Assembly (NCBI RefSeq): GCF_026571515.1
Contig: NW_026857783.1
Coordinates: forward strand, 178,878 to 242,877
Origin: Ruditapes philippinarum
Taxonomy: Eukaryota
Reading direction: 5' to 3'
DNA: 64,000 bases
The position numbers and the translations under genes were made by a program. The first letter of the stretch is position 1. Every line of letters starts with the position of its first letter. This document shows, piece by piece, positions 3,201 to 42,519 of this stretch. The notes under the pieces were generated by a model. That model ran no database searches. It saw nothing but the letters and a program-made list of their open reading frames with translations, and was not told the origin of the DNA.

Positions 3201-3204
3201 AGGT

Positions 3205-8048: not shown

Positions 8049-8179
8049 GTTTGAAAGATGTCAAGGACATTACAGACCCTATGTCAAAGGTCAAGGCCGG
8101 TCTTGTCTCCAAGGACGATGCACCGGTTAACCTTAAATCTGTACATGTTCGTGCTAAACTGATGGATTTGGCATCTGAG
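8049..8179 (+). CDS. PARP4: VIT (vault protein inter-alpha-trypsin) domain exon 1
   Basis: SLKDVKDITDPMSKVKAGLVSKDDAPVNLKSVHVRAKLMDLASE; acceptor cttattag|, donor GAG|gtaaat; phase 1 to 0. Confidence 0.8.
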
Positions 8180-8500
8180 GTAAATTATGTACATCTCTAC
8201 TGAGATGTCAGGGCAGAGAGAATTTTTGTGTGTTCAGGGTGGTTTTAGATAAAATACATGTAATTAATTGTAGGGTGGTTGTTAGTTAAACTGCCAATAT
8301 ATCCTCATTAATGATTTGAAACAACTTTTAAGAATGAATTTATTAGATTCAATGTGATAACTATATTTTCTTGAAAAAAAACATGTTTTAGTCATAAGAC
8401 ACTTATTAATAAGTTCAAAATTGATGTAGCTATGAAGACTTAAATGATATGCTCCTTTTTTCATTGTAAATTTGGGCTGACAGTTGATGTTGGAAATATT

Positions 8501-9235: not shown

Positions 9236-9568
9236 ATGATAAAATATAAATCTGGCTAAAATATAAAAAAAGACTGTGCCACTGTTTTTCTAAACTGATT
9301 GCTACATTTGAATTATAATAGATATTGACAGACTTTTCCTTGGGCCATGTGAGTTATTTATCGTTTCTGCGAAGTGAATTATTAAATTAAAAGGAATTAT
9401 TGCACAATGAAAACTTATTTTGACTTTCACCTGTGCACTCACTATCTACCCTGCTTTATGAAGGAATGAAATGAGGCAGTGAAAAAATTCAAGAGCTTTA
9501 GAAAAGAGTGAAGTATATCATCAGATGAATCACAAGCAAAGTGTGCTAATGATAATCTTTTATTTTAG

Positions 9569-9793
9569 GTGGTTGTGTTGCAAGAATATGAAAACAACAG
9601 TAAGAACCCTCTAGAAGCAAAGTATGTATTCCCACTAGGAGATCTAGCTGCTGTTTGTGGGTTTGAAGCATTTATCAATGGAAAACATATCATTGGGGAA
9701 GTGAAGGAAAAAGAGCAAGCCCATAAAGAATATAAGAAGGCAATTAGTGAAGGGCATGGTGCTTATCTTATGGACCAAGATGAGGAAACTCCT
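9569..9793 (+). CDS. PARP4: VIT domain exon 2
   Basis: VVVLQEYENNSKNPLEAKYVFPLGDLAAVCGFEAFINGKHIIGEVKEKEQAHKEYKKAISEGHGAYLMDQDEETP; acceptor tattttag|, donor CCT|gtaagt; 75 codons phase 0. Confidence 0.85.
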
Positions 9794-10140
9794 GTAAGTA
9801 CAGTGAAACTGTATAAATGGTATAAAATATGATATTTGACCTGTATAAATGGTATATATAAATAAGATATGATATTGAAACCTGTATAAGTAGTATATTA
9901 AAATGGTATAATTTAGATATGATATTGGACCTTTATAAATGGTATGATCTTAGACCTGTATAGATAGTGTGTAAGTGTATAAATGTTATATCAGAATAAT
10001 GATATTTGACTTGTATAAATGGCATAATATTAGATATGATATTGGACCTGTATAAATGGTATGAAATGACATAATATTATGATATTGGACCATGAATTAA
10101 TGGTATAAGATAAGATATGATATATGACCTGTATAAATGG
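9794..10140 (+). repeat. ~60-bp tandem repeat (5 units) beginning at the 5' splice site of exon 9569-9793
   Basis: units tgatatttgacctgtataaatggtataaaatat...; first unit overlaps donor CCT|gtaagtacagtgaaactgtataaatggtat. Confidence 0.65.
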
Positions 10141-10876
10141 TTTAAAATTAGGTCTAATTTCAACATGATTAAAATTGGTGTATCAATTTGAATTAAATTT
10201 CAGTTTTGGACTTTTGGACAAGATGAATATGTCAGTAATTGTCAGTCAATACTACATTGTATTGATTTGTTTTAAAGTTAAATAATTTTCATGAGAGCTG
10301 GATATTCCCATCTGTACAAGAAAAGCATTGTCTGGTCCTTTTTCTTGCAAATTACAGTCATGTTAATTTAAGTTCAAATAGAATTAATCATATTAATATT
10401 TCCAGTTAAGCTGAGTTTACAATTTCATTCTTAATGGCAGAATAATGTCATTCAAAGCATGTGACTCATTCAACAATAGCTTTGTATAGCAGTGTCATGT
10501 AGACATATAGATATCTCTCTTATTCACTTTTAGTTTGAATTGAGTCTTTGATGAATGTATCACTGTATTGAATAAGAGTGTGACTTAAAATAGTGTTGGA
10601 ACATGCACAACACTAAATACTGTATTCCGGTATATACTGGAAAAGGTGCTTGAATGATTAAATTTTAAAATCTTTTGCCATTTCACCTGCCAAAATGCAT
10701 TTTGGAAAGTTTAATTCATCTCTTCCTACCAATTTATATAAGAACTTGAATGATAAATATAAGAATTGTTAAAAAAGAAAAAAAAAAGATTATTTTTCTA
10801 CTTTGTGATCATGATTTCTGCAAGTGTCTAACACTGTAGTGAGTTAAATCTATTGATTATCACTTCTTATTACCAG

Positions 10877-11038
10877 GATGTGTTTACAGTCAGCGTGGGC
10901 AACCTACCACCTGGGGCAACCGTGCTCATCAAGATCACATATGTGGCAGAGTTACAGGTGGAAGGGGAAATGATCAGCTTTAGGTTGCCCGGAAGTGTGG
11001 CTCCTTGGAAGAAAGATTCATTGAAGGAAACTACACAG
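10877..11038 (+). CDS. PARP4: VIT domain exon 3
   Basis: DVFTVSVGNLPPGATVLIKITYVAELQVEGEMISFRLPGSVAPWKKDSLKETTQ; acceptor ttattaccag|, donor CAG|gtatga. Confidence 0.85.
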
Positions 11039-11094
11039 GTATGATTTCTATCCTGTAGTTGGTGTTTTGACATTTTTCCATACTGAAGTTGTAT

Positions 11095-11240
11095 AATATA
11101 AGAAATATACTAGTCCTGATATGACTATGCACTGTCCTGCTGATTAGACTGTTCACTTCCCTGCTGACTGGTCTTTGCACTACCCTGCTGACTGGTCTTT
11201 GCACTGCCCTGCTGACTGGACTTTGCACTGCCTTGTACCA
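11095..11240 (+). repeat. 24-bp tandem repeat x5 (CTGCTGACTGGTCTTTGCACTRCC)
   Basis: ctgtcctgctgattagactgttcacttccctgctgactggtctttgcactaccctgctgactggtctttgcactgccctgctgactggactttgcactgcc, 57 bp after donor 11039. Confidence 0.7.
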
Positions 11241-11924
11241 ATTGATGAAGGTTGTGGTATAACTTGTGAGCAAATTTAAGAGGTTTTCTTTATCAAAACT
11301 GCTGAAACTTGGGCAGGTACCTGTAATAAGTCTGGTCAGACCATAAAGACTTTATGCTGGTGGTACAGCAAGCATGATAATTTTTTTGCTAAATAACGGT
11401 TTTTGACTTAACATGTTTTGAGTGCATGGCTGTGTGAAGCTTTGTATGGGTTGCTTGGTTCTGTTCTTATAGTGAAGGCCAGATGTCATTAGATAACTTA
11501 TATGTTAAAGAAGCTCAACTTAGGTTGAAAAGTCTAAGAACATTATATTTTAAACTGTTACATAATTTAACTGGTGCACTTTATATGGAAAAATATGCAA
11601 AAATTAATAAAAAAAATTACACTCTGTATTGAAAATGAAAATCAATTTTTCAGTGCAATTTTAAGCCCGCTTTGAGTTAAAAGCACTTTTAAATGCTTTT
11701 CATCTTTAGTCATTTTCATTTGCACAATAAAAATGATTATTCTGCTAAAATAGAGTGATCAATGATATGAAATTTTGCACACAAGTTAGTGTTGTATACC
11801 TTCAACAGTTGGTACACAAATCGTGATAAAGTATTTCCAGTCCCTCCATGTCAAAAAAACTTCTGAATCAGTAGAGTTGCTTTAAAAGGTTCATATGGAG
11901 AATTTCTTTTCTTTCTTGTTCCAG

Positions 11925-12038
11925 CATGAGACAGAAACCATAGAGGTTAAACAAGGGGAGACAAGTCTACAGGTTTCTGTAGAGATGCCCTTTGACATAA
12001 GGTCGATTGAATGTCCTTCACAAAAGATAAAGGTCAAG
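11925..12038 (+). CDS. PARP4: VIT domain C-terminal exon
   Basis: HETETIEVKQGETSLQVSVEMPFDIRSIECPSQKIKVK; acceptor tcttgttccag|, donor AAG|gtgagt; 38 codons. Confidence 0.7.
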
Positions 12039-12311
12039 GTGAGTTATCAATAGAAATTCAACACTCAAGGAAGACATATATTTGGAAGAATTTATTTAGA
12101 GTCTGAAGTAAAATTTAACTATGTTGCTTTATTAAAGTTATGAAGCATTTTCAGGTATTGTTTTTGTTTAAAAGAGATGTTGTTGATTGTTTGATTATGG
12201 ATAGACTTGGTTCTTTTATACAAGTAATTTGTTTCTTGATAAATGCCTCTGAAACAAAAAAATTGTACTTTTTTTAGATAGGGCAAACATAGTTTTATAA
12301 CATTTAATAAT

Positions 12312-12490
12312 GATTTAAGAGCATGTTAGATGCTTATCATCTAAAGAATGTAGTGCTGAACGTTAAATTATTTCTCTTGAAAAAAAACAAAATGTTAACA
12401 AAGTAGTATGTTGACTTACCTACAAAAGACTTTATCAAAATTAACTATACTTATTGCAAAATGCAAAAGAAACAAATGATGGTTCTGGTT
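12312..12490 (+). repeat. SINE-like family B copy
   Basis: gagcatgttagatgcttatcatctaaagaatgtagtgctgaacgttaaatt...atgttaacaaagtagtatgttgacttacctacaaaagact. Confidence 0.45.
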
Positions 12491-12741
12491 AATTGGTCAA
12501 TGAGTAACTTTTTGAAATTTTTTGAGGACATTTGAAAGCTTTTGAAGAATGAACATAAAGCATTTCTGTGATATAATGGGCCTTTTAGTACCTAAAACAT
12601 TTACAATTCTGGATATATCAAATATTTGTGTCGATAAAAACTTGTAAATTATGTTTTTAATGATGACTTGCTTTATGTAATGATAAAAAATAGACAAATT
12701 TACATAAAACATTCTCACAGTATTTGAAATATATTTTACAG

Positions 12742-12879
12742 AGGACATTAACAAAAGCAACAATTGAAATGTTGGAAGGAGAATCTATTGGGGATGGTTT
12801 CCAGCTTTTGATTGGTTTAGCTGAGATACATGTACCAAGAATGTGGGTGGAACGGAAACCAGACGATCAGAATCATCAG
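12742..12879 (+). CDS. PARP4: VIT-VWA linker exon
   Basis: RTLTKATIEMLEGESIGDGFQLLIGLAEIHVPRMWVERKPDDQNHQ; acceptor atattttacag|, donor CAG|gtgatt; MITE copy begins 26 bp downstream. Confidence 0.7.
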
Positions 12880-12905
12880 GTGATTGATTCTAATACAAAA
12901 TAAAT

Positions 12906-13128
12906 GAGCGGCATCATGACAAAACCAACATAATGCGACCAGCATTGATCCAGACCAGCCTGCGCATCCGTGCAGTTTGATCAGGATCCATGCTAGCAGT
13001 TTCTTTACTTGTTATAGGGTCTGTAGGCGAACAGCATGGATCCTGATCAGACTGCGCGGATGCACAGACTGGTCTGGATCCATGCTGGTTGCAAACCCAT
13101 GATGTTGGTTTTGTCATGGCGCGGCTCA
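12906..13128. mobile_element. MITE (family M), full copy with AAAT target-site duplication
   Basis: TIR gagcggcatcatgacaaaaccaacat ... atgttggttttgtcatggcgcggctc; internal palindromic core cctgcgcatccgtgcag / ctgcgcggatgcacag; flanks aaat|...|aaat. Confidence 0.8.
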
Positions 13129-13764
13129 AATGAGATTCAAGGATGCAATGTTGAGTTAAAATATTGGGGATATGTGTTTGTTTCTCTGTTCAATGCAGAA
13201 TGAATACCTAATCTGATGTATTTTGAACTATATAGCCAAGAATGAAAATAAAACGGCATGTGTTCATGACTAGAATATAATTTGATCTGTCAAACAGAAC
13301 AATAAATTTTCTACTTATTTCATGCTTTCCAGCTGTTTTCTGATTATTTCCTTGATTTCATAGCTACCACTTCATGACATCTTCAAATTATGACATCACA
13401 ATATCCAGGTTGATAAAAAAATAGTTGTGTAAAGTTTTTATCAAAGGATGTTTTTCAAAAATTAATGATCATGAATCTTTTATGTACTGACATGGAGTAT
13501 TGTTTAACAGATTATTTTTAAGAGCCATAGGTTCTTTTTATTTTTAGATATTTCTTAACCATGCCAATAAAAACAAAAGCTAAACAATTGGCATTTAGGA
13601 ATATATTAATTTACACATGTACAATTAAATGTCATGTCCCTGAAGAAAGAAAATTTGAAAATTGAAAGAAAATGCTAATTAACTTCTTGTTTACTCTATG
13701 ATTGTAAGAGATCATACAATTGTCAGATGTTTGTATATATTTTTTTCTTATCTTGTTTATAAAG

Positions 13765-13951
13765 GCATGCATGTTGGCATTTTACCCAGAATTTGAGGCG
13801 TGCGAGACGGATGATGTAAACATGATTCTACTGCTGGATCTGTCCAATTCTATGAAAGGAGATGCCATTGTTAGTGCCAAAAAAGTTTTACTGCTGACCC
13901 TTCAACATTTACCTTCCACCTGGAACTTTAATGTCATAGTGTTTGGAACAG
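13765..13951 (+). CDS. PARP4: VWA domain exon with MIDAS motif
   Basis: ACMLAFYPEFEACETDDVNMILLLDLSNSMKGDAIVSAKKVLLLTLQHLPSTWNFNVIVFGT; DLSNS is a DxSxS MIDAS motif; acceptor tttataaag|, donor G|gtgtgt. Confidence 0.85.
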
Positions 13952-14751
13952 GTGTGTGTGTCTTTGTGTGTATTTCTTAATCATAAGGTTAAACTGTTAG
14001 TCATTCAAGTGTTTTAATAGTAGTGGTATTGATAAAGAGACCATTTGCATCAGCACCATTCTAGAGAAAGGTAAAACAGTACATCAATGTTGTTTGACTT
14101 ATGTCTGTTCTGTTTTGCTGCTAAGTTGTCAATATGTTATGATATAAGAATCTTTCGATACCTTTACTACAACGCATTTTTAGACCTTTACGCAAATTAA
14201 GCATGGTAAGAGATAAAATTCTATAACTTATAATTTTTCAGTTACTTTTAGTCCTTTATTTCACTGTTTTAGTGTGTACAGGTGAGCTTCATAGGTCTTC
14301 CCTCGCCAGAGGTCAAGCTAAAAAGTTTTTTTTTAACAGTGTCACTTGAAATATAAAGACACTTAATAAAAACAAAACTTCACATTTATTAAACAGAACT
14401 TTTATCTTTTTCTTTGAGATTATTTTCAAGTCATCAGTAATGTTGGTTTACCCGTAACCTGGTGAATCTCTTAAATGTACCTCTCCAGCTTCCATTTTAG
14501 AATAGTCCACTATCAGTTTTGGGGATATCAAAATGAAATTTGAAGTTGCACAGTCAACAGACTGCACAGATATCCAGGCTGGCCTGTGTCTATACTGGTG
14601 ACAAAGTCAAAATACTTTAGATTCTAGCATGTGTAGGGTTCAAGTTGATATGAAAAGGTCAATGTTCATAAGACGGAGAAATAATCAAAGTAACAAATTT
14701 TTGACACATGTAGTTATTTTTAGTAACATTATGTAATTTTGTTTATTTCAG

Positions 14752-14825
14752 CCTGGAAAGAGTTGTTTCCCACTTGTGTAGCTAAAACTTCATCAAATAT
14801 GAAACAAGCATCAGAGTTTGTGATG
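14752..14825 (+). CDS. PARP4: VWA domain exon
   Basis: AWKELFPTCVAKTSSNMKQASEFVM; acceptor gtttatttcag|, donor ATG|gtaaat; phase 1 to 0. Confidence 0.65.
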
Positions 14826-14954
14826 GTAAATACACATGTATTTGTATAGAGAAAGTAAAGGAATTTTGTGACATTGCTCTTAATTTGTTTATGTCAAGCT
14901 TTGCTACTGACAGAAAAATAGGACCTTCACACTCATACGAGTGTATCTACAACA

Positions 14955-16105
14955 GGGTGTATCTTTGTTATACCCCCACAAACGAAGTTTAGGGGGGGTA
15001 TATAGGAGTCAGCTTGTCGGTCGGTTGGTCGGTCGGTCGGTCCACATCATGGTTTCCGGACGATAACTAGAGTTTGGAATGAGATATTGTAATCAGACTT
15101 GGTATATAGCAACCTTATGTGGAAACTCCGGTTGGTATTGCATTTGGACCCCCTGGAGTCAAGGTCAAGGTCAACGTTACTGAAAATAGAAAAATGGTTT
15201 CCGGACAATAACTACAGGTAGGAACGAGATATTGTTATCAAACTTGGTGTATAGCAAGCTTACATGAAGACCTGTGTTGGTATTGCATTTGGACCCCCTG
15301 AGGTCAAGGTCACCGTTACTAAAAATAGAAAAATGGTTTCCGGACAATAACTATGAATGAGATATTGTTATCAAACTTGGTGTATAGAAAGCTTATATGA
15401 AGACCTTGGTTGGTATTGCATTTGGACCCCCTGGGATCAAGGTCAAGGTCACCGTTATTTAATGGTTTCCGGACAATAACTACAGTTAGGAATGAGATAT
15501 TGTTATCAAACTTGGTGTATAGCAAGCTTATATAAAGACCTGGGTTGGTATTGCATTTGGACCCCCTGGGGTCATGGTCAAGGTCACTGTTACTAAAAAT
15601 AGAAAAATGGTTTCCAGACAGTTACTAGAGTTAGGAATGAGATATTGTTATCAAACTTGGGGTATAACAAGCTGATATGAAGACCTGGGTTGGTATTGCA
15701 TTTGGGCCCACTGGGGTCAAGGTCACTGTTACTAAAAATAGGAAAATGGTTTTCGGACAATAACTTGAGTTAGGAATGAGATATTGTAATCAAACTTGGT
15801 GTATAGCAAGCTTATATAAAGACCTGGGTTGGTATTGCATTTGGACCCCCTAGGGTCAAGGTCACCGATACAGTGTTACTAAAAATAGAAAAATGGTTTC
15901 CGGACAATAACTAGAGTTAGGAATGAGATATTGTTATCAAACTTTGTGAAAAGCAAGCTTATTCAGAGACCCCAGTTGGGATTACAATTAATTGAAATAT
16001 TTCTTTGTACACAGTTGATAGTTTGTGATCAATTTTTCTTCAGACTACTTACTTTTCAAAAAGTCAAAGTTGCTGGTGGGGGTATTAATCACCTTCAGTG
16101 ATAAG
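14955..16105 (+). mobile_element. TIR element (TTATACCCCCAC...GTGGGGGTATTA) with ~165-bp satellite x5
   Basis: 5' gttatacccccacaaacgaagtttagggggggtatataggagtcagcttgtcggtcggttggtcggtcgg; 3' gttgctggtgggggtattaatcaccttcagtgataag; internal unit ...ggtttccggacaataactagagttaggaatgagatattgttatcaaacttggtgtatagcaagctta... Confidence 0.6.
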
Positions 16106-16817
16106 TCTAGTTATTTTTTGGCACTAAAGGCCTTAAGGCAGTAATGTTTTTATCTTTGAATTTTACCTTTTACTGTTTCATGTAATAATTGATTGTACAG
16201 GGAAACTTCTGTAGTTCTTCTTTCTTATGAGAAGGAAGAACTATGTTTGTTGAAATTCACTGAGCCGTGATGCTATTAAATTTCACCTAGAAATCCAAAG
16301 CATTCAGAATGTATATGGGACATGCCATTTTGTTCTATGGACAGTGCCATTTTGATATAAGGTAGTTTTACTTTTAGTTTAGAGGTAAACACAGTTACTA
16401 GCAGCAGACTATAGGAAACAGTATGATTGTCATCATAGAACAGAAGAAGAAAAGTTTAGAAAAAAAAAGACAAAATTTAATGTATTATAATAAATGTCAT
16501 TTTGCGTGTATAAATTATTTCAGTAAATATATATTGTGACACCCCCACTTCCACCTTCAAATGGGACAAGTCTATCTGTTAATTGCATCAGAAAACATTG
16601 TATTGTCTATTTAAAGGTTGAATTGTCTGGCCCCTTTAAGACCATTTCTAGTCAAAGGAAACCACATCTGCATGACACTGCTTATTTTTTCCAGCTTCTA
16701 AACATGGACTCCTGTTTATAATCAAATGTATATTCATAAATTTAGTGTTGCCCTTGAAACAATTTTGGTAAGCTTAACTTGTTGAAGTAGCTAAATCTCA
16801 AGATAATGATATTTCAG

Positions 16818-17005
16818 AGCTTGTCTCCAACTATGGGTAACACAGAGGTTGTGAGGCCACTACATACATTCTACCTGATGAAACAGGAAAACTCCATGCA
16901 GAATGTGTTACTTATATCTGACGGACATATGAACAACACGGAACTGTTACTAAATAGTGTACGAACAAATTGCCAACATACCAGAGTGTTTACTGTAGGA
17001 GTCAG
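16818..17005 (+). CDS. PARP4: VWA domain exon
   Basis: SLSPTMGNTEVVRPLHTFYLMKQENSMQNVLLISDGHMNNTELLLNSVRTNCQHTRVFTVGV (VLLISDG... and VFTVGVG-type VWA blocks); acceptor atatttcag|, donor AG|gtaaat. Confidence 0.8.
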
Positions 17006-17745
17006 GTAAATCAATAAATACTTGGTTTAAACATATTTTTATTCAAAGTAATATATACATGTTAAAATTTACAATTTAAGCAGAAAGGAATTGGACCGAG
17101 AGCTACAATAGCTCATGGTAGTCCTCTCCTTTAACAAAAGCAATATGTTCATACATGTATATTACATGGCTTATCATAATTTTAATTAAACCCTATAAAG
17201 AAGGAAAATGAAGAGAAAAAAAATACAAATACATGTATGCAATTGATAGAAAATAATAAAGAGAAAGATGGAGAAAAGAGGAGTTTGCGGATGTTTCTAT
17301 ATCATTTGTCGTTTTGGTAGGAACATCATGTATGGAAAAAAAAACACTTTATTTTGAAGTGATAAGAAAATTGTTTGTGTTGATCAGGTATATGATTTAT
17401 AGGGATTTATAGATTGGTGAAAGTGGCAAGGAATCAAATAAGTTATAACTTGATTGCATTTTATAAAAGTGCATGTAATCATACTGTAGACAGGCTAAGA
17501 GCACATTTTTAAACAGATTTTTGAAGTTCTTATACATTCTTATTGTTCAGGTTTACCTGCTTTGTTATTAAAAATAATGTCCTAAAGATAATTTTTGTTA
17601 ATACATTATAGAAAAAGATAAGCATTTGGGCTTGATAACATATATCCCAAAGATATTTATATCGTTTATTAATGAGATGATACTTAAAAAAAAGTTGTAT
17701 AACATGAAATAAGGTAAAATACTTGAGGTTAGTGATTTGAGCATC

Positions 17746-17911
17746 AGCTCAGTCTGATCAGGATCCATGCTGTTCACTATCAGTTTCTCTACTTGTAATA
17801 GAGTTGGTAAGCGAACAGCATGGATCCTGATCAGACTGCGCGGATGCACAGGTTGATCTGGATCCATGCTGGTCACAAATGCGCAATGTTGGTTTTGTCG
17901 TGACGCGGCTC
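17746..17911. mobile_element. MITE family M, 5'-truncated copy abutting acceptor of exon 17928
   Basis: ...cagtctgatcaggatccatgctgttcactatcag...atgttggttttgtcgtgacgcggctc then atttatgtttttacag|TGG. Confidence 0.75.
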
Positions 17912-17927
17912 ATTTATGTTTTTACAG

Positions 17928-18027
17928 TGGCACAGCTGACAGACACATGTTGAGGGCTTTGGCTAGAGTTGGTGCAGGGTCCTTTGAGTACTTTGATACA
18001 AAAGTTAAATCTAAATGGGAAACAAAG
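17928..18027 (+). CDS. PARP4: VWA domain C-terminal exon
   Basis: SGTADRHMLRALARVGAGSFEYFDTKVKSKWETK; acceptor tgtttttacag| lies 14 bp after a MITE end; donor AAG|gtaaaa. Confidence 0.75.
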
Positions 18028-18391
18028 GTAAAAGTGATGGGCTGAGTATAGAAATAGTATGGTTAATTGTTTGTCATGTTGCTTAAGTTATTCCAAAATT
18101 CATGTTGTATTCCAGAAGACTGATACCTACAAACATTTCCAAAGATTTGTATGAAATAATTTTCTATTTTTCCATGAATATCTGTCAACTTCTCCTCAGA
18201 ATACATTGCATCAGTCTATGTAGGATAAAAAGACATCAGCCAAAAAATGTTTTCAACCAAATAGAAATTGAAAAATTTATCCAGCTTGGAGACTGCAGTT
18301 GATAAAGATCTGTAGAAATTGTACCCTCCCTGCAATTTGAGGTTCTTGTCTTTATTTTATCTATTATATCTAAATGTCTTTATTTAACAAG

Positions 18392-18562
18392 GTTAAATCT
18401 CAGATCAGCAAGGCCGCCCAGCCAGGTCTGACGTCAGTACAAGTGGAATGGGAACAGCATGGTGCCGATGTTCCACCTCCGGTTCAAGCCCCTCGACAAA
18501 TTACGGCCCTATTTAACGGTTCTCGTTCCGTGATATACGGATATGTTCCTAACTGTACAATG
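18392..18562 (+). CDS. PARP4: PARP4-like post-VWA exon
   Basis: VKSQISKAAQPGLTSVQVEWEQHGADVPPPVQAPRQITALFNGSRSVIYGYVPNCTM; acceptor tatttaacaag| is weak; donor ATG|gtaagt; 57 codons. Confidence 0.65.
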
Positions 18563-18926
18563 GTAAGTTCATTTTCTATTTTGTTTTCTGGTTGCTATAA
18601 TCTCTTATGGAGTATTAGAAATCTGTGTTTATATTTGCCACTTACATTTTTGTATTATATCTCCCTCTAAAAGTTATGATATTATAATTTATTTCCCTCT
18701 AAAATTATATTAATTTTGCCTTTAATATTTTTGAAAAAGACCATTGCTGGAGACTTACAACTAAATGCTCATGCAAATTTTATAAAAAAAAGAAAAGAAC
18801 TTTTTAACACATTATATTTGAATTTTATGCATCTAACTTGCATGCTATCTGTAGTATTAAATGGTAATTGTGCATAAAAATTAATATCCATATCCTCAAT
18901 ATAAGTATGAACTTCTGTAATTTTAG

Positions 18927-20096: not shown

Positions 20097-20198
20097 ATAT
20101 TGAAGATGAACACTAAAGATTATATCATTGAGTTAAGTAAGGAGTACTCTATTGTCACTCAATTCACCAGCTTTGTTGCCATAGAAAAAAGAGACAAG
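20097..20198 (+). CDS. PARP4: PARP4-like exon with TSFVA motif typical of VIT/VWA-family C-terminal region
   Basis: ILKMNTKDYIIELSKEYSIVTQFTSFVAIEKRDK; acceptor ttttattacag|, donor AAG|gtatag. Confidence 0.7.
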
Positions 20199-21039: not shown

Positions 21040-21132
21040 GACGAGGAGAAGAAAGCAGTAGATGCCCCGGCTATGTCAGAACTAGTGGAGCGTGAAAATG
21101 TGGATCAACTTCAGTATATGGCATTTGAAGAG
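21040..21132 (+). CDS. PARP4: acidic linker exon
   Basis: DEEKKAVDAPAMSELVERENVDQLQYMAFEE; acceptor tatttccaaag| lies directly after a repeat-element fragment; donor GAG|gtaaga. Confidence 0.55.
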
Positions 21133-23014: not shown

Positions 23015-23087
23015 CTGGAAGAAGTGTTTGACAGTTTGGATATAGGTGATAAAGTGGACTTCAGTGAGACTTTTGGAATGGAAAGAA
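23015..23087 (+). CDS. linker exon preceding ubiquitin-like module
   Basis: LEEVFDSLDIGDKVDFSETFGMER; acceptor ttgatttcag|, donor A|gtaaga; ends phase 1, which exactly restores the UBL frame of the next exon. Confidence 0.5.
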
Positions 23088-23195
23088 GTAAGAATATATT
23101 TGTCTATATCAACCTTTAATAAGTTACTAGTACCTTTCTTTAATGTCAGATCATCTATAAGGGCCACCTTTTAATACACTTGAATACCTTTAAAT

Positions 23196-23430
23196 GAGCC
23201 GCGTCATGACAAAACCAACAAAGTGCGTTTGCGACCAGCATGAATCCAGACCAGCCTGCCCATCCGCGCAGTCTGATCAGGATCCATGCTGTTTGCTATC
23301 AGTTTCTCTACTTGTTATAGGGTTTGGAAGCGAACAGCATGGATCCTAATCAGACTGCGCGGATGCGCGGGCTGGTCTGGATACATGCTGGTCGCAAATG
23401 CATTATGTTGGTTTTGTTGTGACGCGGCTC
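23196..23430. mobile_element. MITE family M, full copy with AAAT TSD
   Basis: gagccgcgtcatgacaaaaccaacaaagtgcgtttgcgaccagcatgaatccagaccagcctgcccatccgcgcagtctgatcaggatccatgctg...gacgcggctc; flanks taaat|...|aaatt. Confidence 0.8.
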
Positions 23431-24349
23431 AAATTACGTTTTAATTATGTGGAAGCTTAGCAATATTTTGATTATGAAAGTACAAAAATGTTCTGTACTG
23501 GTTGGGGACCACCAAAAGCGGACAACCACCAAACCCGGACGGCCCCGAAAATGCTTAATATAGTATTTTCTTTGTTCAGTAGTTGTCAGTCACTTTTTTT
23601 TTTTTAACAATAAGTGCATGTTTCTTATATAATTTAGTAAATAAATTTATTTCAACCTCCGTAAATAGTAATATTTTAATGTCTATTTTAAGAATGTTGA
23701 TGTTGAAATTTGGGCATCAAAAAGCAATGCCTGATCTCATATACCAGCTATAATCATTTGCAAAGTAAACAATAGAATTTCCAAAACTTCAGCATTTGTT
23801 GCTGATATATTGTATATAATGTTAAAAATAAAAAATTAAAACACCCAAGCTTTTATATGAATTAAATCACGCCATGTACATATCTGGTACTGTAGTGTAG
23901 ACAATTTAGGTAATTTTGATACCCTCCTTGTCGAGCCTCAGATTTAAGTGTCAATACAATCAGAAATAATCTAACTAGTTCGTTAGTTAGGAGAAGAACC
24001 TAGCTGAACTGTGTCAAATTTTTAGGTCTCTGAGTTCGAAATTATGAAATCTGTATGGAAAATGTTCAAAAAGTGTCCAGTGATGGTCCCCGATGTTTAT
24101 TATAAAAAAGATAATAAAAAAAAAAATAATAATAATACCTAGAATGTACATGCTCATTATGTGAACCATATATACATGTTAAAAATTTTTATCAGAAAAT
24201 AACAGTATGTATTAATTCCATTTGAATATTATGCTTGTAGCTTATTTATCCAGAAGAAAGTTTCTGTATATAGGCCACCAATGTACTTAATATAATAATA
24301 TTATGAACTATTTTTCACTGGTTATAAACTTTTTTATTTATTGATCTAG

Positions 24350-24453
24350 GAAAGCCACCAAAACCAAAAAGTTCACATTTGTTTGTAAAAACTTTGACTG
24401 GCAAAACTGTGAATCTGGACTTGAATACTGACTGTACTATAGCTGACTTAAAG
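24350..24453 (+). CDS. ubiquitin-like domain, N-terminal half
   Basis: (R)KPPKPKSSHLFVKTLTGKTVNLDLNTDCTIADLK parallels ubiquitin MQIFVKTLTGKTITLEV; acceptor ttgatctag|, donor AAG|gtattt; no in-frame ATG, so it is an internal exon. Confidence 0.75.
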
Positions 24454-24529: not shown

Positions 24530-24790
24530 ACTTGTTGTTGTGTTTATTACTTCGGATCACGGCAGTAAGCCACATTGAATTTACCAGAGCACAGTTCAGC
24601 CACCGCATTGTTCTTGGACAGGCTGTCGAGCTGTTTATCAGTACTAATTGCTTTCACTTTTGCAAGCAAGTGATAACTTGTATACATGACAGAGCAGAGG
24701 TACAGTGCGAATGACTGTGGTCAATCACAACAAAAGTGACCTGCACCATCTGGGAATCGAACCTGGGTCGCCCAGCATATTTTTACATGC
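24530..24790 (-). repeat. tRNA-derived SINE-like element or tRNA pseudogene fragment on minus strand
   Basis: ctgggaatcgaacctgggtcgcc is the reverse complement of a GGTTCGATTCC T-arm/B-box; no intact cloverleaf or A box could be folded by eye. Confidence 0.35.
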
Positions 24791-25725
24791 CAGTACAAGT
24801 GATGGGGAAAAGTAATTTTTCTCTTAATGAATTAACATTTGTCTTTTATTCCCAAGAGACATATATAAATCAAAATAATTTAGAAAGAAATGTTCTTACT
24901 TTAAGCTTATCAATTTATCTAATGAAGCCTTTCTTATACCCCTGAATGTAGATTTTAATCTTTAACCTATTTGATCCAAATGTGATTTAGACTTTGACAC
25001 CACTTGTTTAGAACCAGCCTAGTCTGCACATCCATGCAGTCTGACCACAAGGGCTCTATACTGTGGGAAGTTCAATTTTCATATTATTAGCTTGACTATT
25101 TGCAGAATAATCGAGCTAATGCAGTCACCCATTTGTTGGCGTTGGTGTCCCTGTGGTTAAGTTTTTGCGTGTAAGCTGATATCTCCATAACTACTGAAGG
25201 GAATGGATTGAAACTTCACACACTTGTTCTCTGTGATTATCTAACATGATTGGCACAAGTCCAATAACTCTTATTTGCTTTTTTTGCATAATTATGCTCC
25301 TTTTTTACTTAGAAATTCTTGTTAAAGTTTTTGCTTGTAAGCTGGTATCTTCATAGGGTTTGTGCTTTTTTGGGGACAATTTAATGCTTTCATAATAAAG
25401 CAGTGATTTACTCGATAAGACATCTTAATAACAAGCCTTTGTACCTTTTTGGACAATTTTATGTATTCATATAGGTAAGTACATGTATTATTATACTCAA
25501 TGAAACACCCTTGTGACAACTTTTTCGATTGGTGGAGCGCTGCTGTCCTCCAACAGTTCTTATTTTTAAATTGAAATCCTTTAAACTTTGGCTGAACTGT
25601 TCCAGGGCAAATCTTTTTCACAATGTCAGCAGGTCAGGAGTTCAACAATGATTTATCATGATAGCTATCCAAGAGATATAAGTCCGTTCTTTTTTTAAAC
25701 ACCATTTATTTGTTGTACAATCAAG

Positions 25726-25870
25726 GCTATGATACAAGACAAAGAGGGTATACCTCCTGACCAGCAGAGACTGGTTTACGCTGGACGTCAGCTAGTAGAT
25801 GACTGGACATTGCAGGATTATGATATACAAAATGAGTCAATGTTACATCTTGTATTGAGATTAAGGGGCG
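25726..25870 (+). CDS. ubiquitin-like domain, C-terminal half
   Basis: [48 protein letters not shown](G) parallels ubiquitin [47 protein letters not shown]; acceptor caatcaag|, donor G|gtaagt. Confidence 0.85.
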
Positions 25871-26195
25871 GTAAGTCTGTATGTCTTAAATATAGAGTAA
25901 AGGGAGATAATGCATGTTTCAATAACATCAGTCATAGTTGAATCCTTTATTTATTGGAAAAAGAGCAAAAATAAAGGATGATAAAATAGGTGTATTGTCT
26001 AAACATTATGAAGTATAATGACAATTTTTCTAATTTATAATTCTTTTGTTTTAGTTATTTTTGTCATTGTATGAAAAAAAAGTTAATTTCATGAAAAGAC
26101 TAAAACACTCTTGAATATTTGAATATTTCAAGCATTTTACTGTCTGTATGGAAATTTGTTTAACTCCAGTGAAAATGGTTATTCATTTCTTACAG

Positions 26196-26248
26196 GACCA
26201 TCAGAAGATCAGGTACTTAAATTTAAGAAGGCAAGAGGACTTTTGAAG
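26196..26248 (+). CDS. short linker exon
   Basis: (G)PSEDQVLKFKKARGLLK; acceptor tttcttacag|, donor AAG|gtaaaa; phase 1 to 0. Confidence 0.5.
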
Positions 26249-26774: not shown

Positions 26775-26834
26775 CATGAAAGAGAAGCCATGTCAAAGAT
26801 TTCTGCAGATGTTAATGAAACTAAAATGCTTTTA
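26775..26834 (+). CDS. Ykt6-like R-SNARE motif, N part
   Basis: [20 protein letters not shown] parallels Ykt6 [15 protein letters not shown]; acceptor atattccag|, donor TTA|gtaagt. Confidence 0.7.
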
Positions 26835-26869
26835 GTAAGTTCTCCTTTAGTGGCCCTATCATTGCTTTG

Positions 26870-27050
26870 TTTTATATAGCTGTTTACATTTCACTTTACT
26901 ATTACACTTTACTTTAATGATATGCATTTAATTACTATTACACTTTACTTTAATGATATGCATTTAATTACTATTACACTTTACTTTAATGATATGCATT
27001 TAATTACTATTACACTTTACTTTAATGATATGCATTTAATTAAAAAGAAA
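26870..27050 (+). repeat. 35-bp tandem repeat x~5
   Basis: tattacactttactttaatgatatgcatttaattac repeated head-to-tail. Confidence 0.75.
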
Positions 27051-27614
27051 TGAGGACACCGTTCTGGACTCACTGGTAATAATGCAGGCTGTCAACCAAT
27101 TTCTAAAATTATATTCCTTTATAAGTAAAATTATACCTATTTGCAAAAATACTTCCTATATTAAATTTTATAGTATATTCTCCAAAATTATTCCTGCGTT
27201 TGGACAAAAAGGTAATCTAAGTCCTGAAAAAAATAATGTTTTTTTGGCTTGCTATGCTGGCAATACCATTGGATTGTAATTCTAAGTAAACATCAAATCT
27301 TGTTCCTATATTATTTCATTATTTTGGCTTAAACAGGTCTAAAGCCAGTTAACAGGTTGAAAATGTTGACTTAATATCCATTCCCCTATTCTTTGTTTGA
27401 CAAAGTTACTGAGCATGGAAAGTTAGAGGTTCAATTTCTAAAATGATGCATTGCTGATTTTGAGTAATTGATTTTCCCAGCTTTAAATTTATTCAAAGTT
27501 TTTAAGATTTTAAAATCAAGATACAAAAATTGAGCTACGAACTGTATAGAGCCAAGTCAGACTGCATGGACAATCTTTATATGGCAAGTTGTATTTATGG
27601 TTTTTGAATTATAT

Positions 27615-27849
27615 GAGCCGCGTCATGACAAAACCAACATAACCCGTTTGCGACCAGCATGGATCCAGACCAGCCTGCACATCTTCGCAGTCTGATCAGG
27701 ATCCATGCTGTTCGCTTACCAACTCTATTACAAGTAGAGAAACTGATAGTCAACAGCATGGATCCTGATCAGACTGCGCGGATGCGCAGGCTGGTCTGGA
27801 TCTATGCTGGTCGCAAACCAATTCTGTTGTTTTTTTTGTGACGCGGCTC
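27615..27849. mobile_element. MITE family M, full copy with ATAT TSD
   Basis: gagccgcgtcatgacaaaaccaacataacccgtttgcgaccagcatggatccagaccagcctgcacatcttcgcagtctgatcaggatccatgctg...tgtgacgcggctc; flanks atat|...|atat. Confidence 0.8.
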
Positions 27850-28032
27850 ATATATACAGCTTAACAGATGAATTTACAGAGGTAAATCCCTTAGAGATAC
27901 AGAAACTAGTAGTCCAGTTAACTTCTGGCAGTCCAAGTTTCAAAAACATAAAGGTCTTTACATTGTAACCAAATGCATGCTTCCCCTGAAACTGAACAAT
28001 ATTTTAACCAATGTTTTTTTCTCTCTTTTTAG

Positions 28033-28134
28033 AATGAAAATATACAAGCAGTACTGGAAAGGGGAGAAAAATTAGATGAATTAGTAGAAAAGTCAGGAGA
28101 CCTAAGTTTACAGAGTCAAATGTTCTATAAAACT
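28033..28134 (+). CDS. Ykt6-like R-SNARE motif core (zero-layer Arg)
   Basis: [34 protein letters not shown] parallels Ykt6 [38 protein letters not shown]; acceptor ctctctttttag|, donor ACT|gtaagt; 34 codons. Confidence 0.85.
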
Positions 28135-29202: not shown

Positions 29203-29426
29203 GCTCGCAGCAGAATTGATGACGATATGGAAAGAATGAACGTATATGATGGAACATCTGAAGAAGAAGAATCTGAAGAGTCAGATTTTGAATGTTCAGA
29301 AACTCTTGGAGTTGAACAAGAATTTGGAGTAGATCTTACTGCTGAAGAAGAAAGAGAATATGATTCAGATGATTCGGAAGGAAATTCTGAAGATGAACTG
29401 TTACATGAAGGACTGCAGATGAACTT
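29203..29426 (+). CDS. acidic (E/D/S-rich) exon; ends at GTGAGT donor, alternatively at in-frame TGA 29428-29430
   Basis: ARSRIDDDMERMNVYDGTSEEEESEESDFECSETLGVEQEFGVDLTAEEEREYDSDDSEGNSEDELLHEGLQMN; acceptor cctttattgcag|; donor GTGAGT at 29427 overlaps stop TGA; phase 2 continuation is compatible with exon 33448. Confidence 0.6.
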
Positions 29427-30035
29427 GTGAGTTTTTGTAAAGGCTATTTAGCTTTTTTTATATTTAGCTAGATTATACATGTATGTAGCTTAATAATGAA
29501 GTGGCAGATGATAATTATTGTCCATGTGTATGTTCAGGTTTTTTTTACTGAACCATTAAGCTTTGTCAATATTTTTTAAATAACTTGGCACAATAATGTT
29601 TGTTCACCATCACGAAACAATATGTCATAATTTAAATTCACAATAAGATGTCAATAATTAGGAACCATTACTGTTTCATTCCATGGGCATTTTTTATTAT
29701 TTTAATTAGATTTTCCAACAAAAAGCTCAGGTAATAAGATAAGTGAATATGGACAGACAGGCATTAGAGTGTGCCTAAGTTGTTAGAGTGTGCCTAAGTT
29801 GTAAACATTAGGTTCTCAGTGTAACTGAATATTTCTGTAACTTGGCAGTTATAAAAAAAGGGCTTACATTCATTGTAATGACTATTACACCTTCAAATAC
29901 ATATCTCTACCAAAGGTAATAACTTAAAGGTCATTCCGACAAGTTTGTTGGTAGTACAATGTATGCGAATTATGTTCTGTTCCAATAACCTGAGGATTTG
30001 TGCTGGGATGAGATACCAGCAGGGAGTTTTTTAGC

Positions 30036-31700
30036 TCACCTGTCACAAAGTGACAGGGTGAGCTTTTGTGATCGCTTTTCGTCCGGCGTCTGTCCGGCGT
30101 CCGTCCGTCCGTAAACTTTTGCTTTAAAGGACATCTCCTCATAAACCACTGAGCCAATTTCATCCAAACTTCACAGGAATGTTCCTTTGGTGGTCACCTT
30201 GAAAAAATTGTTCAAAGAATTTAATTCCATGCAGAACTCTGGTTGCCATGGCAACCGAAAGAAAAATCTTTAAATATCTTCTTTTAAACAACCCTAAGAG
30301 CTAGAGCTAAGATATTTGGCATGAAACATCTTCTAGTGAGTGTTTACCAAGTTTGTTCAAATAAAAGCCCTGGGGTCAAAATTGGCCCCGCCCCAGGGGG
30401 TCATAGATTTTCCCTATATGCATATAGTAAAAACTTAAAAAATCTTCTTTTAAAGAACCCAAAGAGCTAGAGCTAAGATATTTGGCATGAAACATCTTCT
30501 AGTGAGTGTCTACCAAGTTTGTTTAAAAAAAAGCCCTGGGGTCAAAATTGGCCCCGCCCCAGGGGGTCATTGATTTTCCCTATATGCATATAGTAAAAAC
30601 TTAAAAAATCTTCTTTTAAAGAACCGAAAGAGCTAGAGCTAAGATATTTAGCATGAAACATGTTCTAATGGGTGTCTACCAAATTTGTTCAAATAAAAGA
30701 CCTGGGGTCAAAATTGGCCCCGCCCCAGGGGGTCATTGATTTTCCCTATATGCATATAGTAAAAAAATCTTCTTTTAAAGAAACCAAGAGCTAAGATATT
30801 TGGCATGAAACATCTTCTAGTGAGTGTCTACCAAGTTTGTTCAAATAAAAGCCCTGGGGTCAAAATTGGCCCCGCCCCATGGGGGGTCATAGATTTTCCC
30901 TATATGCATATAGTAAAAACTTAAAAAATCTTCTTTTAAAGAACCCAAAGTGCATAAGCTAAGATATTTGGCATGAAACATCTTCTAGTGAGTGTCTACT
31001 AAGTTTGTTTAAATAAAAGCCATGGGGTCAAAATTGGCCCCGCCCCAGGGGGTCATTGATTTTCCCTATATGCATAAAAATTATAGTAAAAACTTAAAAA
31101 ATCTTCTTTTAAAGAACCCAAAGAGCTAGAGCTAAGATATTTAGCATGAAACATGTTCTAATGGGTGTCTACCAAATTTGTTCAAATAAAAGCCCTGGGG
31201 TCAAAATTGGCCCCGCCCCGGGGGTCATTGATTTTCCTTATATGTGTATGGCAAAAACTTAAAAATCTTCTTTGAAAAAACCCATATAGCTAGAGATTAG
31301 ATATTAAGCATGAATCATCTTCTAATCAGTGTCTACAAAGTTTGTTTAAATAAAAGCCCCGGGGTCAAAATTGGCCCTGCCCCGGGGGTCATTGATTTTC
31401 CTTTTTTGTGTATAGCAAAAACTTAAAAATCTTCTTTGAAAAAACCCAAATAGCTAGAGTTTAGATATTAAGCATGAAACATCTTTTAGTAAATATCTAC
31501 AAAGTTTGTTCAAATAAAAGCCTGGGGGTCAAAACTGGCCCTGCCCCAGGGGTGTCATTGTTTTTAACTATATGTGTATAGTAAAAACTTAAAAAATCTT
31601 CTTTTAAAAAACCCAATGAGCTAGAACTTAGATGTTTAGCATGAAACATATCTGGCCCTCTTGTTTTAGATCTTGAGACAGCAAGATATTTTATGCCTAG
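30036..31700 (+). mobile_element. satellite-bearing element: perfect 33-bp hairpin head, (GTCCG)n tract, then ~9 units of a 165-180-bp satellite
   Basis: agctcacctgtcacaaagtgacagggtgagct hairpin at 30036-30068; tcgtccggcgtctgtccggcgtccgtccgtccg; unit ...gagctagagctaagatatttggcatgaaacatcttctagtgagtgtctaccaagtttgtt..aaagccctggggtcaaaattggccccgccccagggggtcattgattttccctatatgcatatagtaaaaac; related head at 61140-61320. Confidence 0.7.
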
Positions 31701-33447: not shown

Positions 33448-33484
33448 CGAGTCAGACAATCAATTCAAAGGCTGGGCAATGGAG
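33448..33484 (+). CDS. 37-nt micro-exon (candidate)
   Basis: acceptor ttattttatttcag|, donor GAG|gtataa; with upstream phase 2 reads (F)ESDNQFKGWAME and hands phase 0 to exon 34059. Confidence 0.35.
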
Positions 33485-34058: not shown

Positions 34059-34665
34059 ATGGCACAATCCTATGAGAAATTCTCGGCACAGGCAGAGGTA
34101 TCTACAAAAAGGCTTATGGATGTAGACACACATAAAGCTACGCCTGAATTAGAACAGATGTTAGATGCTGGAGCTGATACAATGTTTAAAAAAGTAAACT
34201 CCAAATCGGCAGCATATGACAGTGATGATGAATCTTGTGATGATGATATGGGATTTGATCTTTTTGGGGGGGATAGTTATGAAAAACAGGAAAGGTCTTC
34301 ACCTAGTCCTGTCTCACGTAAAACACATGGTGGAATGCTCAATCGTGACATACATTTAAGATCACCTATAGAGATAGAGAAAGAAGAGATTGTCCAGAAA
34401 GCTGTATCACATGTAAATGTAGATATGCTAGAGTGTAGTGAAGAGCCTGAATTTGCATACTGTTTGAGCATGGAAAAAGACTATACTGAACCTATGGAAG
34501 AGTGTTATGAAGATGATGACATTTATGAGAACCCTGAAGTTGAATATGAAGGTCAGAGGGGGACCTTTGCAGATTTGAGTCATGACTTATCTGCACGTGA
34601 ACAAATTACTATGAAAGCAAATGTAGTATCAAGTTTTGATAGTGAACCTCAGTTTGATGAAATTG
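34059..34665 (+). CDS. large acidic exon containing ribosomal P-stalk-tail-like motif
   Basis: 607-nt ORF MAQSYEKFSAQAEV...DSDDESCDDDMGFDLFGGDSYEKQERSSP...; acceptor tattatag|ATG; donor TTG|gtgagt at 34666; ATG sits at first exon position. Confidence 0.65.
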
Positions 34666-41160: not shown

Positions 41161-42444
41161 AAAAAACCAGCAAGGAGAGCAATGAAGTCACATTTCAAAG
41201 CTCCTGAATCATCAAGTATTAGTTCACAAGCAGAAAAAGCAGAAACTGGCCTCCCTTCTCATCTTCATTTGAGTAATTGTTCCATGGCACCACAGTTGCA
41301 TCAGCTAATGGCACCACAATTGCAGCAAATGGCACCACAATTGCAGCCGCAAATGGCACCACAATTTCAGCAGCACATAGCACCACAGGTGCATCAACAA
41401 ATGGCACCACAATTGCAACAGCCACAACAACAGCTAGATATGCCACAACCTAATGCAAGAACTGATAAATTTATGTCTAGGTCTAAGCCTCCTAAATTTA
41501 TGTCTAGGTCTAAGCCTCTTGAAACTTATTCTGCATTGGAAAGGTCTGATGAATCATTGATGCATCAGATGGATAAAATTCCAACAGTGCATAATTATTT
41601 TTCAACAAGTTCTCCTTTTTCTCCTGCACCATTGAGTGCACCACCACCACCCCCACCTCCTCCAGGGGATACCCCAAGACCCACACCACAACTAGGGGTT
41701 GCTATTATTCCTTCATCTTTTCAAGTAGCATCTAGTTATCAAGCTCAGATACCAAGTTTTGGTTTTGGTGCAACAACGGGTGCATCACCACAACCCCCAC
41801 CTTCATCAAATAATGCGACTATACCACCCCCATGTCCTCCAATGCTTGCCCACAGATTCCAACCATCGAGAGCTCCAAGCTATTTATCTTTCGAAGTAGA
41901 GCCTAGATATGCAGCTAAAGCACCAAGTTTTGCTTTTAGTGCAACAACGGGTGCATCTCCACCACCACCACCTCCTTCAAAGGAAGCTCACAGACCACCA
42001 CCTCCACCAGGGGGTGCCCCCAGACCAACACCACCACCACCTCCAGGGGGTGCTCCCAGACCACCACCACCTCCAGGGGGTGCTCCCAGACCAGCACCAC
42101 CACCACCTCCAAGGGATGCTCCCAGACCTCCAGCTTCTCCAAGGGGTGCTCCTAGCCCTTCATCTTCTCTAGTAACATCTAGACATCCAGCTCCAGATCC
42201 AAGTTTTTCTTTTGGTGCAACAACTGGTGGATCTTTGGAAATGCTAAAAAGTTGTCCCAATATTAGCCCTATTAAGAGGATGATTGCAATGTCATTATCT
42301 AAATCTGCTGTTGATGATAATGATATGGAGTTTACCAAAGCCTCTAAGCAGGAAAGCAAAGAAATACCTGAGAAGAAAAGCATTGAAGCTCATGTTAGAA
42401 GAAATTATGGGGGAAGGAGGGTAGATATGCGTGAACTTCAAGAG
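41161..42444 (+). CDS. 1284-nt low-complexity exon: Q/P-rich MAPQLQQ repeats, FG-type PSFGFGATTGASP repeats, polyproline PPPPGGAPRP repeats
   Basis: long ORF in frame from acceptor ttttttttgcatacag| (41159-41160) to donor GAG|gtttgt (42445); 428 codons; repeat structure explains the overlapping antisense ORFs. Confidence 0.7.
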
Positions 42445-42519
42445 GTTTGTAAAACATAACACTTTTATAAGGTTTGACTTTCTTAATATACAGTACAGCT
42501 TTAACAATTTTTCCAAAGT

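Follow-up and report, generated by a model that had tools for sequence, protein, structure and literature searches.

A Ykt6-type SNARE helix as a probable internal module of a PARP4 gene in Ruditapes philippinarum

How does a Ykt6-type SNARE helix come to stand without the longin domain and the lipidation box of Ykt6, and to what protein does it belong? The question is raised by a stretch of 64,000 nucleotides from Ruditapes philippinarum (contig NW_026857783.1, positions 178,878 to 242,877 of the forward strand), all of which we analysed and which is called the window below. A preliminary description had located such a helix at 26775-28134 and implied that it belongs to a small protein, in which a ubiquitin-like domain precedes the helix and an acidic tail follows it. 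The helix is confirmed; the small protein is not. The exons of the helix join the frame of PARP4 (vault PARP) upstream and probably continue downstream, and the helix is probably an internal module of a mollusc PARP4, captured from Ykt6, that may act as an anchorless, tomosyn-like R-SNARE.

Six exons of the + strand, each with AG/GT borders, share one frame and contain the helix and its immediate neighbours:

24350-24453 and 25726-25870, + strand: ubiquitin-like domain in two exons (PF00240), its C-terminal LRLRGG followed directly by Pro
26196-26248, + strand: linker exon of 53 nt, PSEDQVLKFKKARGLLK, in frame between the ubiquitin-like domain and the SNARE motif
26775-26834, + strand: SNARE exon 1, layers -7 to -3, counterpart of the Ykt6 exon starting NPKEAD (a unit inferred from the Ykt6 fragment P0245)
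28033-28134, + strand: SNARE exon 2, carrying layers -2 to +6 with the zero-layer Arg; identity to Ykt6 within its borders 74-77%
29203-29430, + strand: acidic exon, opening with the Ykt6-like AR (layer +7) and then running as an acidic stretch in place of KQNSCCAIM; exon end 29426

The two SNARE exons, each of phase 0-0, and the first codons of exon 29203 together encode a complete R-SNARE motif of the Ykt6 type. The peptide first reported for 26775-28134 was thus correct for the two exons, which lie exactly there, while its final AR is the start of exon 29203 and falls beyond the end given. The Synaptobrevin profile PF00957, proposed earlier as a check, matches with E = 3.6e-14 (52.8 bits, cut-off 26.4) over profile positions 3-56 of 89, a span that equals the SNARE motif minus the transmembrane part. 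Against the sequences of the PDB, phmmer places Ykt6 first (3kyq, 9.4e-14, 53.9 bits), 26 bits ahead of the other R-SNAREs (VAMP4 27.4 bits, endobrevin 26.8, Snc1 about 27, Sec22b 18). The residues in layers -7 to +7 are M I V T L N V R L L S L S F A in the window and M V L T L T L R L L S L S F A in human Ykt6, in a register anchored on what we take to be the VAMP2 numbering, with R56 as layer 0. All of these residues are compatible with a SNARE, and the zero-layer Arg that had been claimed is present. Identity is 58-64% to invertebrate Ykt6 and 67% to the best invertebrate fragment, which is as close as human and invertebrate Ykt6 motifs are to each other in the same alignment. The earlier figure of two thirds does not hold for the two strings on which it was based, which agree at 28 of 51 positions (55%).

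Wider searches also returned Ykt6. A word-indexed search of 5.8 billion proteins with the SNARE motif and its tail gave four matches, all of them Ykt6 at 58-64% identity. With phmmer there were 794 matches at E ≤ 1e-3 among 1.84 billion representative proteins; the best 150 are Ykt6-length proteins or fragments only, and all 15 of the top or atypical matches inspected are Ykt6, Ykt6 fragments, tandem-exon artefacts or fusions. No stand-alone protein combining a ubiquitin-like domain with a SNARE helix occurs among the matches listed (the best 150 of the 794).

A canonical Ykt6 gene as the source of the signal in the window is ruled out by the absence of longin exons. When three full-length Ykt6 proteins were compared with the 64 kb by tblastn, only the SNARE exon matched, and the interval between 24.5 and 26.7 kb, where upstream longin exons might have been overlooked, yielded none. 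The statement that a ubiquitin-like domain stands where the longin domain is missing is therefore borne out, with PF00240 matching at 2.4e-25. Beyond FYKTAR the frame continues as SRIDDDMERM..., an acidic sequence with no CCAIM or Cys-Cys box and no hydrophobic segment or membrane anchor.

The reading frame of the module indicates the protein that carries it. Exon 24350 opens in phase 1 and contains no start codon, and therefore something must lie upstream; a 73-nt exon at 23015-23087 provides the phase that is required. From about 600 to 21,100 the open frames of the + strand resemble the PARP catalytic, VIT and VWA sequences of PARP4, as follows:

615-7540, + strand: PARP4 helical regulatory and PARP catalytic exons, colinear by tblastn with the mollusc PARP4-like protein P0125 from its residue 253
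8012-18568, + strand: PARP4 VIT and VWA exons, colinear tblastn segments with 56-84% identity to P0125
18927-21132, + strand: conserved post-VWA PARP4 exons, including ILKMNTKDYIIELSKEYSIVTQFTSFVAIEKRDK (20097-20198) and 21040-21132, 68-89% by tblastn to P0125
22246-22395 and 23015-23087, + strand: two lineage-specific acidic linker exons with AG/GT borders, open frame and the right phases, from the gene model only

The catalytic H-Y-E residues are legible in FHAS, GIYFAS and DDEYVIY. Homologues of these frames come from molluscs, a hemichordate, echinoderms, corals and vertebrates; the closest named ones are from molluscs, and the best match is P0125 at 59% identity. The top 120 homologues listed are PARP4 or PARP4-like proteins with PF00644, PF08487 and PF13768, and PF13757 and PF00092 also occur among their domains. 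Homologues of the post-VWA exon were also located in oyster, scallop, mussel and abalone loci. Judged by this homology, the window encodes a PARP4 orthologue. Residue 253 of P0125 corresponds to the start of the window; the 5′ end of the gene therefore lies upstream of the window and any BRCT part outside it.

Between 20097 and 34665, twelve AG/GT exons in succession can be read through with no stop, and they carry the frame from conserved PARP4 through the ubiquitin-like and SNARE exons. We consider it quite likely that the module belongs to PARP4 transcripts. The alternative closest to the preliminary description is that the PARP4 locus also houses a small independent gene, or an internal promoter that gives rise to a short isoform: about 232 residues (MERRKPPKPK...LQMNL*) comprising the ubiquitin-like domain, the SNARE motif and the acidic tail, and forming a free, soluble SNARE decoy. 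An in-frame ATG four codons before the end of exon 23015-23087 could open such a protein and the TGA at 29428 would close it. We think this improbable. The ubiquitin-like exon has no start codon and is in phase 1, four further AG/GT exons upstream extend the open frame into conserved PARP4, and the searches described above, which were able to reveal such a protein, gave Ykt6 only among the matches listed. The apparent stop is itself suspect: the TGA at 29428-29430 overlaps a strong consensus donor, CTT/GTGAGT, and no AATAAA or ATTAAA polyadenylation hexamer lies within 670 nt after it. Gene models from oyster and snail, described below, also put the modules inside PARP4-like proteins. As to the replacement of CCAIM by a long acidic tail, the box is indeed missing and the acidic stretch is present, but the tail is probably not the end, and the frame would continue past the GTGAGT donor.

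Beyond this donor we place the following features:

33448-33484, + strand: candidate micro-exon of 37 nt, flanked by tttatttcag and gtataa, which exactly closes the frame between 29426 and 34059; inferred only
34059-34665, + strand: acidic exon of 607 nt holding DSDDESCDDDMGFDLFGGD (Met at 34248), with an open frame and AG/GT borders
41161-42456, + strand: proline-rich open frame, probably PARP4 linker
52250-52349 and 53988-54397, + strand: last two exons, joining in phase, probably homologous to the vertebrate PARP4 vault-anchoring C-terminal region

The last two exons are colinear with the final 150 or so residues of fish PARP4, although the match is weak (E = 5e-6 to 1e-3, phmmer, in a database of 394 proteins). 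It is colinear with residues 1152-1277 of the 1302 of P0145, and the best full-sequence value, 5e-6, belongs to P0186; tblastn of the P0145 C-terminus against the window gives E = 0.003. In human PARP4 a MINT domain, residues 1562-1724, anchors the enzyme in the vault (PMC12280208). The probable counterpart in the window lies 23 kb downstream of the module exons on the same strand. No Pfam family was found on the downstream exons, the proline-rich frame included, in a library outside which PF26156 and PF26166, two families listed for vertebrate PARP4, fall. The proline-rich frame has four or five PPPP(P)GGAPRP repeats and Gln-rich MAPQLQQ repeats and looks like a profilin- or SH3-binding tract of the formin FH1 kind. 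Taken together, one long + strand PARP4 gene, extending from before the window to about 54.4 kb, is strongly indicated as the most economical reading. The order of its parts, each of them either evident or strongly indicated in the sequence, is PARP regulatory and catalytic, VIT, VWA, acidic linker, ubiquitin-like, SNARE, acidic with DDDMGFDLF, proline-rich and C-terminal vault-anchoring.

The exon borders suggest how the helix arrived there. In the Ykt6 fragments P0246, P0247, P0252 and P0353 the read-through after FYKT opens with Val, which corresponds to a GT donor, and repeated units run from H(N/Q)T to FYKT (P0249, P0252) or from NPKEAD to FYKT (P0245). In P0245, P0249 and P0252 one or more SNARE exons are duplicated in tandem; whether these are artefacts of assembly or gene calling or real exon duplications, they were used for borders only. 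The read-through and the repeated units place Ykt6 introns at ^NPKEAD, IIL^HNT and FYKT^AR, an argument that draws in part on what we take to be the intron positions of human Ykt6. The fly Ykt6 locus, with a single intron in the longin part, and the intronless Ykt6 of a Logan contig are both uninformative on the SNARE introns. The borders in the window lie within two codons of the first of these positions and agree exactly with the second and third, and the exon that follows still begins with AR. We infer that this agreement is the signature of a genomic copying of the last three Ykt6 exons and not of a processed retrocopy. The 3′ end of Ykt6 was thus probably captured by PARP4 as exons: its last three exons would have been copied as genomic DNA into the intron-rich PARP4 linker, where they became exons, and the CCAIM box and the stop codon would have been lost, so that the frame reads on. 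The idea of exon capture into a non-trafficking protein, already put forward from the helix, is upheld both by these borders and by the missing longin domain, lipidation box and anchor.

Related modules are present in other molluscs. Two of the 120 PARP4 homologues listed carry extra domains, one a Synaptobrevin and the other a ubiquitin domain. The first, a partial PARP4-like protein of Saccostrea cucullata (P0140), combines VIT and VWA with a Synaptobrevin match that exceeds the Pfam cut-off (1.5e-9, 38 bits), and its SNARE-like exon was located in genomic DNA at 16010-16111 of the Saccostrea contig L001. The second, a PARP4-like protein of Batillaria attramentaria (P0139), has BRCT, PARP, VIT, VWA and ubiquitin (6e-18). 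Where aligned Ykt6 sequences have HNT, KNT or LNT, the window has NENI and the oyster KENV, with a derived EN in common. The ubiquitin-like domains of the window and Batillaria have seven derived residues in common (I3L, I13V, E24A, N25D, V26L, I44V and K48R), and the GG is lost from that of Batillaria. A third element links all three: a motif of the form [DE]nM[GA]FxLF, which reads DDDMGFDLF in the window, EEMGFCLF(D) in Batillaria P0139 and VDMAFALF(D) in Saccostrea P0140, and is missing from all 118 remaining PARP4 homologues that were retrieved. Because the derived residues and the stalk-like motif are shared, we argue for a common descent of the modules in window, oyster and snail, as opposed to three independent accidents. 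The SNARE capture would then be older than the split of the window lineage from the oysters, and the ubiquitin-like insertion older than the split from the caenogastropods. No ubiquitin-like exon was found on the oyster contig L001, which argues against its being a universal feature.

These comparisons also bear on the view that the exons are a neutral relic, that is, a partial Ykt6 duplication in a PARP4 intron whose pseudo-exons are either not spliced in or tolerated without function. Long, disordered PARP4 linkers are permissive of such insertions (PMC12280208), and in three other mollusc PARP4 loci the part that could be read lacks the module. Against this, the frames are intact with no stops or frameshifts, splice sites are canonical, phases are compatible and the heptad layers are fully kept, while related modules with shared derived residues occur in oyster and snail, which are distant lineages. 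We regard a relic as very unlikely.

Two further observations concern the oyster contig. An exon resembling the N-terminus of actin (PF00022, 1.6e-8) follows directly after the SNARE-like exon in the oyster model (L001 16491-16772). It may be real rather than a mis-prediction, since actin domains have been reported on PARP4-like proteins of other lineages (PMC4245714); no counterpart was found in the window. On the minus strand of L001, at 25393-25518, an exon resembling window exon 52250-52349 lies just past the end of the oyster PARP4-like gene and on the opposite strand to it. This could represent a convergent second PARP4-like gene or an assembly inversion.

The ubiquitin-like domain, upstream of the helix, is close to ubiquitin itself, and polyubiquitin dominated the matches of a search made with the entire ubiquitin-like/SNARE peptide. 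PF00240 covers exons 24350-24453 and 25726-25870 over its full profile (1-72), and 51 of 76 residues (67%) are identical to ubiquitin. The L8/V44/V70 patch is intact, with I44 changed to V. K29, K48 and K63 are replaced (K29M, K48R, K63N), whereas K6, K11, K27 and K33 are retained. Ubiquitin-fusion degradation uses K29 and K48, and with these and K63 replaced, the chains of that pathway could not be built on this domain. LRLRGG runs on in frame as GG-P-S-E-D across the 25870/26196 splice junction (site 25860-25873), and Ub-Pro junctions are poorly cleaved by deubiquitylases, as is known from the ubiquitin-fusion technique. From its residues, the domain thus looks like a built-in ubiquitin signal that can be neither cleaved nor extended. 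In-line ubiquitin fusions (Ub-Pro, and those of the Rad23/parkin type) have in common with it the ubiquitin fold, LRLRGG and the recognition patch; it differs from them in its GG-Pro, in the replaced K29, K48 and K63 and in the lack of GG in the snail orthologue. Downstream of the helix, DDDMGFDLF (34239-34265, within DSDDESCDDDMGFDLFGGD) is an internal near-copy of the C-terminal tail of the ribosomal stalk proteins P0/P1/P2, which ends in ..DDDMGFGLFD.

How the helix might act can be judged by comparison with known systems. With Ykt6 the motif shares the SNARE type, the layer pattern, the zero-layer Arg, the deduced exon borders and the AR after FYKT. Ykt6 has in addition its longin domain and the CCAIM/CCxxM box, whereas the window motif has neither and lies within a protein of well over 1,000 residues. 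Lacking the longin domain and the lipid anchor, it is not a member of the Ykt6 family in a functional sense. In tomosyn (STXBP5) and amisyn (STXBP6) an anchorless R-SNARE-like motif likewise sits on a large non-SNARE protein. The VAMP-like domain of tomosyn sequesters syntaxin-1 and inhibits fusion (PMC2568027). The scaffolds of these two proteins, WD40/Lgl in tomosyn and PH in amisyn, were not found by Pfam in the module, the downstream pieces or the domain lists of the homologues. Their motif is C-terminal and VAMP2-like, while that of the window is internal and Ykt6-like, and different Q-SNARE partners are therefore to be expected. The likeness is mechanistic only, by analogy, and does not amount to family membership.

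The window gene shares with PARP4/vault PARP (Clade 5) the catalytic H-Y-E, the VIT and VWA domains, the post-VWA exons and, probably, the C-terminal region. PARP4-like proteins are known to accrete C-terminal domains, among them 14-3-3, actin and ubiquitin-related ones, the last in Acanthamoeba (PMC4245714). No SNARE motif is included in that list, and a full-text literature search found no description of one on PARP4. The accreted domains of known PARP4-like proteins are appended at the end, whereas the window modules are internal, between VWA and the C-terminal anchor. Between its folded domains PARP4 has long disordered stretches, and it is held in the vault by its C-terminus (PMC12280208).

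We propose the following mechanism. The helix has neither an anchor nor a longin domain onto which it could fold, and would therefore behave as do the R-SNARE motifs of tomosyn and amisyn, which are likewise anchorless. It would zipper onto Qa/Qb/Qc acceptor complexes, namely the Ykt6 partners of ER (endoplasmic reticulum)-Golgi, endosomal or autophagosomal membranes. The resulting non-fusogenic complex would either compete with Ykt6 or dock PARP4 at those membranes, together with any vault bound to its C-terminus. The ubiquitin-like domain would serve ubiquitin-binding receptors as a stable, non-extendable signal. Extended to all three elements, the PARP4 tether would carry three 'address labels' (a ubiquitin that can be neither cleaved nor extended, a complete R-SNARE helix from Ykt6 and a ribosomal stalk-tail copy) and, if the helix pairs, would link vaults to ER-Golgi or autophagosomal membranes; we offer this extension tentatively and think it doubtful. 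Membranes, ribosomes and autophagy receptors, to which the three labels would correspond, are all partners that recent in situ and proteomic studies locate close to vaults. In cryo-tomograms of Dictyostelium a small proportion of vaults is seated on membranes of the ER and the nuclear envelope, and some vaults enclose ribosomes (PMC13100048). Vaults also bind NBR1 and are degraded by p62-dependent autophagy, according to earlier work cited in the same report (PMC13100048).

The pairing itself is the least secure step. A four-helix bundle with Qa-, Qb- and Qc-SNAREs is a conceivable property of the conserved layers, which we think less likely than not. It is also possible, if not what we would expect, that the helix sits in PARP4 but has ceased to pair with Q-SNAREs, and that it now serves as a generic coiled-coil or linear-motif region in the vault lumen, bundling PARP4 or holding cargo. 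A generic coiled coil would have no need of the zero-layer Arg and of all layers in the Ykt6 pattern, which the window copy keeps at 58-67% identity, and a buried Arg disfavours homomeric bundles. In favour of such a luminal role, the oyster copy is shorter and more diverged. The linkers of vault-bound PARP4 are luminal (PMC12280208), and because vaults can enclose ribosomes (PMC13100048), the neighbouring stalk-like motif is suggestive of luminal contacts.

Several points weigh against an internal, membrane-directed SNARE module in PARP4. In human vault-bound PARP4 the linker lies in the lumen of the vault (PMC12280208), and a SNARE motif placed there would therefore reach the Q-SNAREs of membranes only when PARP4 is free or the vault open. 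The exon junctions are those of a gene model derived from the DNA, beside which stand two other automated gene models. Within this model the micro-exon at 33448-33484 is a frame-closing candidate only, and there is a gap between 34665 and the proline-rich frame and C-terminal exons. The Met at the end of exon 23015-23087 (..GMER), together with an internal promoter and the TGA at 29428, permits a short ubiquitin-like/SNARE isoform. The borders of the oyster SNARE exon differ from those of the window, and it covers only layers from about -6 to +4. In the PARP4 loci of scallop, mussel and abalone, no ubiquitin-like or SNARE exon was found within 10-15 kb downstream of the VWA-proximal exon, and the locus of the protobranch clam Solemya was uninformative; either the distribution of the module is patchy, with losses in places, or the exons lie farther off than the 10-15 kb read. 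We nevertheless retain the interpretation of the helix as a PARP4 module captured from Ykt6.

The window as a whole is AT-rich (about 33% G+C), with many introns and repeats, as befits eukaryotic DNA. The intron that splits the SNARE motif contains a perfect 36-nt tandem repeat (26896-27042, 4.1 copies, 100% identity), whose lack of divergence between copies marks it as young. The intron that follows the acidic exon holds a 166-nt tandem array (30263-31649, 8.4 copies, 88% identity) that looks like a satellite or a derivative of a short interspersed element (SINE). CACCATCTGGGAATCGAACCTGGGTCGCCCAGC, at 24735-24780 between the two ubiquitin-like exons, resembles the 3′ half of a tRNA (T-arm, reverse strand) and is probably a fragment of a tRNA-derived SINE; ARAGORN found no tRNA genes in the window. 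An element of about 250 nt with terminal inverted repeats (GAGCCGCGTCATGACAAAACCAAC ... GTTGGTTTTGT(T)GTGACGCGGCTC), resembling a miniature inverted-repeat transposable element, occurs in both orientations, and all its copies are in PARP4 introns:

about 12920-13200, 17598-17900, 23190-23440, 27600-27860, 48970-49270 and 49690-49900, both orientations: copies of the inverted-repeat element

The locus would offer a clean example of exon shuffling in which the exon borders of the donor gene have apparently been retained. If the proposal is true, a further anchorless R-SNARE motif has been recruited by an unrelated protein, beside those of tomosyn and amisyn; we know of no earlier case in which such a recruited motif derives from Ykt6. 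The other two labels would then link PARP4 to ubiquitin receptors and to stalk-binding factors. Vaults are among the largest and most conserved particles of animal cells, and PARP4 is their enzyme. This PARP4 variant would, if the proposal is true, give testable handles on the links of vaults to membranes, ribosomes and autophagy receptors.

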